DNA of 64,000 nucleotides from Escherichia coli. GTDB lineage: Bacteria; Pseudomonadota; Gammaproteobacteria; Enterobacterales; Enterobacteriaceae. The translations under genes were made by a program, and so were the position numbers. Positions 14,710 to 17,297 of this stretch are shown here, in pieces. The stretch is taken from the NCBI RefSeq assembly GCF_016026235.1, contig NZ_CP065613.1, one strand, 5' to 3'. The first letter of the stretch is position 1. Each line of letters starts with the position of its first letter. The notes below the pieces were generated by a model. That model was not told the DNA's origin, did not search any database, and worked only from the letters and a program-made list of their open reading frames with translations.

Positions 14710-15489
14710 TTAGTAGCTGCTGGCGCTCTTACCGTCACCGTGGCCCAGCGCTTTCAACAGGCTTGCCAGCAGGCTGGAAGCACCAAAGCGGTAGTGACGC
14801 GCATCTGCCCAGTCAGCACCGAACAGTTCATCTGCGATGGCGAGATATTTCTGCGCATCTTCCGCAGTACGCACGCCGCCCGCTGGTTTGAAACCAACGG
14901 TTTTTTCTACGCCCATATCACGGATCACTTCCATCATGATGCGCGCGCTTTCCGGCGTCGCGTTCACAGCCACTTTACCGGTAGAGGTTTTGATGAAGTC
15001 CGCACCCGCTTTGATGGAGATTTCAGACGCTTTACGGATCAGCGCTTCGTCTTTCAGTTCGCCGGTTTCGATGATCACTTTCAGCAGTACGTTAGCCGCA
15101 GCGCAAGCCTCTTTACAGGCTTTCACCAGGTCAAAACCAACCTGCTCGTTACCCGCCATCAGCGCGCGGTACGGGAACACCACGTCAACTTCATCGGCAC
15201 CGTAGGCGATTGCCGCACGGGTTTCTGCCAGCGCAATGTCGATGTCGTCGTTACCGTGTGGGAAGTTAGTTACCGTAGCGATACGGATTTCCGGGGTGCC
15301 CTGCTCTTTCAGAGTTTTGCGAGCAATCGGGATAAAGCGAGGATAGATACAGATAGCGGCGGTATTGCCGACCGGAGTTTTGGCCTGATGACACAGGGCG
15401 ATCACTTTCTCGTCGGTGTCGTCGTCATTCAGGGTGGTCAGGTCCATCAATTTCAGTGCACGCAGGCTGCTTGCTTTCAGATCAGTCAT
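14710..15489 (-). CDS. deoC: deoxyribose-phosphate aldolase DeoC
   Basis: 259 aa from [26 protein letters not shown], Shine-Dalgarno aggag upstream. Confidence 0.92.
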
Positions 15490-15533: not shown

Positions 15534-15549
15534 TGTTAGTATTCTAACA
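15534..15549. promoter_or_regulatory. DeoR operator O2 at deoP2 (perfect 16-bp palindrome)
   Basis: tgttagtattctaaca is the reverse complement of the DeoR consensus TGTTAGAATACTAACA; overlaps a TAGAAT -10 element about 45 bp upstream of deoC ATG. Confidence 0.7.
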
Positions 15550-15746
15550 TCTACTCCGCAACACACTTCGATGTACATCACAATTAAGGAAATCTACTTA
15601 CAAGTTTGCATCACTGTAATGCGATCTGGTTCAAATAATTCACTTTCAAATGAATGCGTCAGTGGTGGCAAACGCATCAGGATCAAAGTGAACATCACGA
15701 AACTTCTTACAATGGCGCATCACCTTCGGCATAAAAGGAAAAGAAG

Positions 15747-17297
15747 ATGCCCACTTCTCATGAAAATGCACTGCAACAACGTTGCCAGCAAATTGTCACC
15801 AGCCCGGTACTTAGCCCGGAGCAGAAGCGCCATTTTCTGGCACTGGAAGCAGAAAACAATCTGCCTTATCCGCAGCTTCCTGCCGAAGCCCGCCGCGCGC
15901 TGGATGAGGGGGTAATCTGCGATATGTTTGAAGGTCATGCGCCGTACAAACCGCGCTATGTCTTACCCGATTACGCCCGTTTTCTGGCGCACGGTTCCGA
16001 ATGGCTGGAGCTGGAAGGCGCGAAAGACCTTGATGACGCACTCTCTCTGCTCACCATTCTTTACCACCATGTACCGTCGGTCACATCGATGCCGGTCTAC
16101 CTGGGGCAACTGGATGCGTTGTTGCAACCGTATGTTAGAATTCTAACGCAAGACGAGATCGATATTCGAATAAAACGTTTCTGGCGTTACCTCGACAGAA
16201 CCCTGCCAGATGCCTTTATGCACGCCAATATCGGCCCGTCTGATTCGCCCATTACCCGCGCAATCTTACGTGCAGACGCAGAGTTGAAGCAGGTTTCACC
16301 GAACCTGACCTTTATCTACGATCCTGAAATCACCCCTGATGACCTGCTGCTGGAAGTGGCGAAGAACATCTGTGAATGTAGCAAACCGCACATCGCCAAC
16401 GGTCCGGTGCATGATAAAATTTTCACAAAAGGGGGCTACGGGATTGTGAGCTGTTACAACTCACTGCCGCTGGCGGGTGGTGGCAGCACGCTGGTACGCC
16501 TAAACCTGAAAGCCATTGCCGAGCGCAGTGAATCGCTGGAGGACTTCTTTACGCACACTCTACCGCACTACTGCCAGCAGCAGATCGCCATCATCGATGC
16601 GCGGTGTGAATTCCTCTATCAACAATCACACTTCTTTGAGAATAGCTTCCTGGTGAAAGAAGGGCTGATTAACCCTGAACGTTTTGTGCCAATGTTTGGC
16701 ATGTATGGGCTGGCGGAAGCGGTTAACTTGCTGTGTAAGAAAGAAGGGATTGCCGCGCGCTACGGTAAAGAAGCCGCCGCAAATGAAGTGGGTTATCGCA
16801 TCAGCGCGCAACTGGCGGAGTTTGTCGCCAATACCCCCGTGAAATATGGCTGGCAAAAACGCGCCATGTTACACGCACAGTCGGGGATCAGTTCCGATAT
16901 CGGCACCACGCCGGGCGCGCGTTTGCCGTATGGTGATGAGCCAGATCCGATCACCCATCTGCAAACTGTCGCCCCGCATCATGCTTATTATTATTCCGGC
17001 ATCAGCGACATTCTGACGCTCGACGAAACCATCAAACGTAATCCGCAGGCGCTGGTACAGCTTTGCCTCGGTGCCTTTAAAGCCGGAATGCGTGAATTTA
17101 CTGCCAATGTCAGCGGTAACGATCTGGTTCGCGTTACCGGTTATATGGTGCGTTTGTCGGATTTAGAAAAATATCGCGCCGAAGGTTCACGCACCAACAC
17201 CACCTGGCTGGGCGAAGAAGCCGCACGCAACACTCGTATTCTGGAACGCCAGCCGCGCGTGATAAGCCATGAACAGCAGATGCGCTTTAGTCAGTAA
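15747..17297 (+). CDS. yjjI: glycine-radical-enzyme-like protein YjjI (DUF3029)
   Basis: 516 aa, divergent from deoC, followed by activase yjjW. Confidence 0.85.
16133..16148. promoter_or_regulatory. DeoR operator O1 at deoP1, inside the yjjI coding sequence
   Basis: tgttagaattctaacg, 15/16 palindromic, exactly 599 bp from O2, the published O1-O2 spacing. Confidence 0.65.
16413..16428. promoter_or_regulatory. candidate DeoR operator OE
   Basis: tgataaaattttcaca, 12/16 match to the operator palindrome, 280 bp beyond O1 as expected for OE. Confidence 0.4.

Follow-up and report, generated by a model that had tools for sequence, protein, structure and literature searches.

The locus described here lies in a 64-kb stretch of Escherichia coli DNA, which was analysed at its full length and is referred to as the window. 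Two divergent genes are found at the locus, deoC on the minus strand and yjjI on the plus strand, and a match to the segment was obtained in 5423 of 5426 complete E. coli genomes, with 95-99.7% identity and with the two genes annotated as yjjI and deoC. The gene layout in K-12 is identical, with 257 bp between yjjI and deoC, and over 1046 aligned columns the window and K-12 showed 99% identity, with the two DeoR operators O2 and OE unchanged. The features of the region, several of them predicted from the sequence, are as follows.

14710-15489, minus strand: deoC coding sequence, first gene of deoCABD, with its ATG at 15489; annotated in K-12 and in the matching E. coli genomes.
15534-15549, no strand assigned: DeoR operator O2, TGTTAGTATTCTAACA, at the promoter deoP2; one mismatch to the consensus, identical to K-12 O2.
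15567-15582, minus strand: CRP site 1 of deoP2, with the deo-strand sequence TGTGA-TGTACA-TCGAA; corresponds to a ChIP motif from ETEC, in a block conserved in the intergenic alignment.
15620-15635, minus strand: putative CRP site 2 of deoP2, in a partly conserved block at a distance of 53 bp from CRP site 1; the deo strand reads TTTGA-ACCAGA-TCGCA.
15673-15686, plus strand: predicted FNR site of the yjjI promoter, CGCAT-CAGG-ATCAA, with the ATCAA half (15682-15686) conserved.
15708-15713, plus strand: predicted yjjI -10 hexamer, TACAAT, with a conserved TGTA/TACA core; it would put the FNR site near -41.
15747-17297, plus strand: yjjI coding sequence, 516 amino acids, YjjI-like glycyl radical enzyme, supported by the open reading frame, Pfam and the codon-position entropies.
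16133-16148, no strand assigned: DeoR operator O1, TGTTAGAATTCTAACG, over the predicted -10 element of the promoter deoP1; one mismatch to the consensus, assigned by orthology with K-12.
16161-16186, minus strand: conserved block upstream of O1 on the deo strand, yjjI codons 139-147, with low third-position entropy.
16412-16427, no strand assigned: DeoR operator OE, TGATAAAATTTTCACA; 12/16 to the consensus, identical in K-12, 279 bp from O1.

Residues 22-504 of YjjI fall in the Pfam YjjI-like domain, so that O1 and OE lie within genuine coding sequence, and the entropies at codon positions 1, 2 and 3 (0.31, 0.21 and 1.14 in an alignment of 68 sequences) indicate that yjjI is protein-coding throughout. 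A search for a solved structure on which to place the operator-encoded residues of YjjI found none. Downstream, yjjW starts at 17269 and overlaps the last 29 nt of yjjI (17269-17297), an arrangement compatible with coupled translation of the enzyme and its activase.

Operators were searched for with the consensus TGTTAGAATTCTAACA against the whole 64-kb window. The 16-bp palindrome TGTTAGAA-TTCTAACA, which is equal to K-12 O1, was taken to be the DeoR consensus. With up to three mismatches only two sites were found in 64 kb, 15534-15549 and 16133-16148, where 0.13 would be expected by chance; the consensus scores were 15/16 for O2, 15/16 for O1 and 12/16 for OE in the register 16412-16427. An earlier note on this DNA had called the site at deoP2 a perfect palindrome, which it is not, since it is self-complementary at 14/16 positions and the perfect palindrome is that of K-12 O1. 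The second site claimed there, 15/16 at 16133-16148 and 599 bp away, was recovered with one mismatch to the consensus. For the third site the score of 12/16 held, the position did not (16413-16428 gives 7/16), and the distance of 280 bp had to be corrected to 279 bp. These small errors, the perfect site and the OE register shifted by one base, leave the interpretation unchanged. O1, O2 and OE all look like extended -10 elements.

The spacing between O1 and O2 is 599 bp in the window and in K-12 (6665 and 7264 of the compared K-12 segment), which bears out the proposal that it equals the deo O1-O2 spacing, and the distance from O1 to OE is 279 bp in both. The published deo spacings would include 279 and 878 bp, and the published operator sequences are presumably those of K-12. 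In the published description, each of two tandem promoters carries one DeoR operator, O1 or O2, with about 600 bp separating them, and OE lies about 300 bp further upstream (PMC8053113); the 599-bp spacing, deoxyribose-5-phosphate as the inducer and the requirement for looping have been reported as well (PMC3334521, PMC5326754). The exact operator 16-mers were not found in the literature searched. The comparison with the known deo sequence that the earlier note had proposed came out in its favour, through the match to K-12 and the layout in PMC8053113, and on sequence identity the three sites are the orthologues of the K-12 deo operators O2, O1 and OE, with DeoR binding taken from the literature.

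At deoP2, the minus strand of O2 reads TGTTAGAATACTAACA and holds TGtTAGAAT. The extended -10 element of deoP2 is predicted at 15541-15546 within O2, with a start near 15534. In the genomes with deoC adjacent and the region covered, O2 was kept 45-60 bp upstream of deoC with scores of 12-15/16, except at two Edwardsiella loci that scored below 12/16. A CRP ChIP-seq peak with the motif TGTGATGTATATCGAA has been found between yjjI and deoC in ETEC (PMC4287617). By arithmetic on the predicted start, the centre of CRP site 1 lies 40.5 bp from the P2 start given by the TAGAAT hexamer. CRP site 1 is presumably the -40.5 site of deoP2, and 15620-15635 was taken as CRP site 2 from the known tandem CRP sites of this promoter. 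In the spacer of CRP site 1, two adjacent differences from K-12 were observed (15574-15577, TGTACA vs TGTGTA), and the half-sites are intact. About 200 bp of conserved sequence (GGTGAGATGGATCTCA...CTTCAAGGAACCAAGTCCGCTCGCCAACG...) are inserted between O2 and the start of deoC in Hafnia and Edwardsiella, making a long deoC leader that is missing from Enterobacteriaceae; the insertion gave no match to an Rfam family at the gathering threshold.

Because yjjI starts 257 bp from deoC and runs in the opposite direction, deoP1, O1 and OE lie antisense within yjjI, in codons 129-147 and 222-227. O1 starts at the third base of codon 129 (T GTT AGA ATT CTA ACG, encoding Y-V-R-I-L-T, codons 129-134), and OE starts at the third base of codon 222 (T GAT AAA ATT TTC ACA, encoding H-D-K-I-F-T, codons 222-227), so the placement of the distal sites at about codons 129 and 222 of the open reading frame 15747-17297 was correct. 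The hexamer TAGAAT is present on the deo strand in both O1 and O2, and in K-12 TGt precedes both; the deoP1 -10 element is predicted to be TAGAAT on the minus strand at 16140-16145, with a start near 16133. The overlap of the deoP1 region with the yjjI coding sequence, also claimed in the earlier note, agrees with a published deoCABD promoter located 'in an upstream gene, yjjI' and bound by sigma70 (PMC6389913). The conserved block at 16161-16186 corresponds to about -28 to -53 from the predicted P1 start and includes the rare codons CGA141 and ATA142; it may be a -35 or UP-like element of deoP1, or a site for another factor. Since a simple promoter and terminator scan called none of the three expected promoters (deoP1, deoP2 and that of yjjI), with its matches at chance level, the hexamers assigned here are to be read as predictions.

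To compare the locus across genera, yjjI loci were scanned with one genome per species, giving 80 loci, 76 of them linked to deoC and four from Proteus. The divergent neighbour of yjjI was deoC in loci of Escherichia, Citrobacter, Salmonella, Enterobacter, Lelliottia and Kosakonia, among others, and also of Kluyvera, Atlantibacter, Hafnia and Edwardsiella. Proteus differs: its four loci have ytjB and serB immediately before yjjI and lack an intervening deoCABD, hipH or lplA block, indicating that in the enterobacterial lineage the deo block was either inserted beside yjjI or lost from this position. O1 was present at yjjI nt +386 with 14-16/16 in 76/76 deoC-linked loci, and the exact OE sequence was present at nt +665 in nearly all of them; both sites were absent from all four Proteus loci, which have no adjacent deoC. 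The O1-O2 spacing ranged from 567 to 626 bp across genera. A strict helical phasing of O1 and O2 was rejected on this ground, and no precise phasing requirement is evident from a spacing that is not fixed, while between O1 and OE the yjjI reading frame holds the distance at 279 bp.

For the constraint on the coding sequence, a codon alignment of 68 non-redundant enterobacterial sequences with deoC beside yjjI was used, and 1533 windows of 16 nt were ranked by entropy. The least variable 16-nt stretches of yjjI in the 68 genomes were OE, then the block at nt 424 (16171-16186), then O1, with OE at rank 1 and O1 at rank 7 among the 1533 windows. Uninterrupted invariance at the third positions of yjjI extended furthest in codons 131-134 (O1) and 225-227 (OE). 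In windows of seven codons, the third-position minima were located at codon 129 (O1), codon 222 (OE), codon 507 (the yjjW overlap, 507-510) and codons 138-143, of which the minimum at the yjjW overlap serves as a built-in positive control for the method; third-position entropy was depressed across codons 138-146. The rare codons AGA131, CTA133, CGA141 and ATA142 are fixed, codons 131-142 hold 4/9 of the AGA, CTA, ATA and CGA codons of yjjI, and the local GC content is 33-38% vs 53% for the whole gene.

The amino acids also followed the operators. The codon of residue 131 changes with operator position 6, being AGA, AAA or GGA (R, K or G, respectively). For residue 132, deoC-linked loci invariably use ATT, whereas Proteus has E, N or S there, and residues 224-227 are K-I-F-T in deoC-linked loci vs A-V-F-G in Proteus, where the codons at the O1 position are GTG GGT GAG CTC ACC and others. 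Taken together, the invariant synonymous sites, the fixed rare codons and the contrast with Proteus indicate selection at the DNA level that acts only where deo is adjacent and dominates codon choice. This comparison of sequences shows strong purifying selection on the sites that overrides YjjI codon preference and even some amino-acid choice. Synonymous conservation far over the gene background was thus found together with its loss where the regulated partner is absent, and this comparative evidence for a dual constraint is a small new observation.

Conservation of the intragenic sites might also be explained by the needs of YjjI itself, with selection on its amino acids or codons and a resemblance to the DeoR operator arising by chance. 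Y129, V130, L133 and T134 are conserved in Proteus as well, and I-K-R-F-W-R (codons 142-147) is conserved at the protein level everywhere, as this explanation would predict. It does not account for the synonymous positions that are invariant in 68-70 genomes against a mean third-position entropy of 1.14, for the fixation of the rare AGA and CTA, or for residues 131, 132, 224, 225 and 227, which are free to vary in Proteus, where deoC is not adjacent; moreover, the intragenic sites match operators that were genetically defined in K-12, O1 with one base of difference. An origin from coding constraint alone is therefore effectively refuted and has only a minimal chance of being correct.

For OE, the consensus score carries less information. 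Four 12/16 matches were found in the window vs 2.3 expected, so that its score alone is at chance level, and the site could be another conserved element, a cryptic promoter or the site of another factor, rather than a DeoR operator. The sequence TGnTAAAAT on the plus strand, flagged as promoter-like by the scan, would fit such an element; the scan result, however, is itself at chance (1 found vs 1.1 expected). The site lies 279 bp from O1, which fits the published OE about 300 bp upstream, retains TG..CA at the ends and AATT at the centre of the palindrome, and occurs only beside the deo operon. A non-DeoR element at 16412-16427 is considered very unlikely, and the assignment as OE is supported by the identity with K-12, the position close to the published value of about 300 bp (PMC8053113) and the extreme conservation across genera. 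Around this site, at 16393-16420 on the plus strand, OE holds TGATAAAAT, which is extended -10-like, with TCGCCA 16 bp upstream; the deo strand reads TGTGAAAAT.

The region is almost certainly the classical deoCABD control region, with O2, O1 and OE as DeoR operators and with looping and induction as known from the literature. DeoR is an octamer. The repressor would act from three 16-bp operators, O2 at deoP2, O1 at deoP1 599 bp upstream and OE 279 bp beyond. O1 and O2 would each include the -10 element of their own promoter (TGtTAGAAT on the deo strand), and bound DeoR would occlude RNA polymerase since the element lies within the operator. The multivalent DeoR oligomer would connect the operators by single or double looping of the DNA, leading to higher occupancy and repression, and deoxyribose-5-phosphate would free DeoR from the operators. 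Looping between O1 and O2 is predicted at about 72% in vivo (PMC8053113). The deo system is textbook knowledge, and the deo promoter within yjjI is already known, being in print (PMC6389913) and visible in the annotation; the case is one of a textbook looping system recovered by reading the sequence without tools.

On the side of yjjI, TTGATCC, which holds an FNR half-site, is nearly invariant across genera in the intergenic alignment, and the TACAAT block is conserved too. The gene has been listed as directly activated by FNR, with an unlisted transcription start and an FNR ChIP peak (PMC3688515), which after coordinate conversion falls about 93 bp before the start codon of yjjI; yjjI has been grouped with anaerobic respiration genes, and the YjjI protein has been observed. 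These data suggest that 15673-15713 is a class II FNR promoter of yjjI, with its -10 element about 27 nt upstream of the ATG. O2 and O1 flank the predicted yjjI promoter, which places it inside the loop, and the predicted deoP1 opposes it across about 400 bp; counted from this promoter, O1 is about 410 nt and OE about 690 nt into the yjjI transcript. With the promoter inside the O1-O2 loop, facing deoP1, and the operators in the transcript, interference with yjjI, which the earlier note had raised as a possibility, is geometrically plausible, whether through a roadblock, trapping in the loop or convergent transcription. DeoR roadblock or looping, or convergent deoP1 transcription, might thereby lower yjjI expression.

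Whether O1 and OE also regulate yjjI-yjjW, through a DeoR roadblock or loop or through collision with transcription from deoP1 after DeoR release, so that YjjI is tied to deoxynucleosides, has to be weighed against deo regulation on its own. The geometry, with the predicted promoter at 15673-15713 between O2 and O1, fits a second role of the operators, as do the adjacency of yjjI and deoC conserved from Escherichia to Edwardsiella and the high predicted O1-O2 looping in vivo. On the other hand, no link between DeoR and yjjI was found in those papers mentioning yjjI that were searched, where an effect of DeoR, deoP1 or deo-inducing conditions on yjjI expression was likewise not found, and deo regulation alone fully explains the conservation. 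Since yjjI is detectably activated by FNR and its protein has been observed, any block would be partial. Regulation of yjjI-yjjW by these sites is a tentative possibility. It is similarly doubtful that the two effects act jointly, with DeoR looping or roadblock and antisense deoP1 gating YjjI/YjjW by deoxynucleoside supply and with the operators having overwritten residues of YjjI; the overwritten residues, also a speculative proposal, would be G131 (changed to R/K), 132 (fixed as Ile) and 224-227 (fixed as K-I-F-T) throughout Enterobacteriaceae. If true, joint gating would be a case of a regulatory code dominating the protein code of the neighbouring gene, and nucleoside catabolism may cross-regulate YjjI, an uncharacterised anaerobic radical enzyme. 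Apart from such gating, the deo operators and the predicted deoP1 core are among the most conserved stretches of yjjI and represent a clean natural overlap of regulatory and protein codes.

Auxiliary operators embedded in coding sequence are known from lac O2 in lacZ and gal OI in galE, where high-affinity repression likewise depends on a distal operator bridged by a multivalent repressor. Unlike these, the deo operators are located in the divergent neighbour yjjI and not in the regulated operon, and a whole promoter, deoP1, is embedded antisense to its host gene. Looping has been compared with that of other repressor systems in PMC8053113 and PMC3708714. Transcriptional interference between facing promoters is known from coliphage 186 (pR/pL); the resemblance is geometric alone, with an overlap of about 400 bp between predicted promoters in the present case.

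A CRP ChIP-seq peak with the motif CGTACCGTCGGTCACA has also been reported inside yjjI in ETEC (PMC4287617). At 16068-16083 (yjjI codons 108-113) the window reads TGTACCGTCGGTCACA, which is one base nearer to the CRP consensus than the ETEC CGTACCGTCGGTCACA. A conserved intragenic CRP site near deoP1 was rejected, because the synonymous positions there vary freely (third-position entropy 0.9-1.75), and the ETEC peak may result from cross-linking through a DeoR or CytR loop, or from a weak strain-specific site.

The deoCABD region of K-12 has the same O2, the same OE, the same spacings of 599 and 279 bp and the same positions relative to yjjI and deoC, and the window differs from it at 16148 and in the spacer of CRP site 1. 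The difference at 16148 is a synonymous change from ACA to ACG (Thr134) in O1, by which the deo strand changes from TGTTAGAAT in K-12 to CGTTAGAAT. With this A to G change the perfect palindrome of K-12 O1 is gone, as is the T of the extended -10 TG, so that the G allele is predicted to weaken both the O1 palindrome and the extended -10 TG of deoP1, whose -10 element is itself a prediction. The G allele was found in none of the 5426 complete E. coli genomes, in which a control query with the A allele matched 4885 genomes. Assembly GCA_031665325.1, with 4.5 kb of identical sequence, does have the G allele, and another, near-identical assembly carries A.
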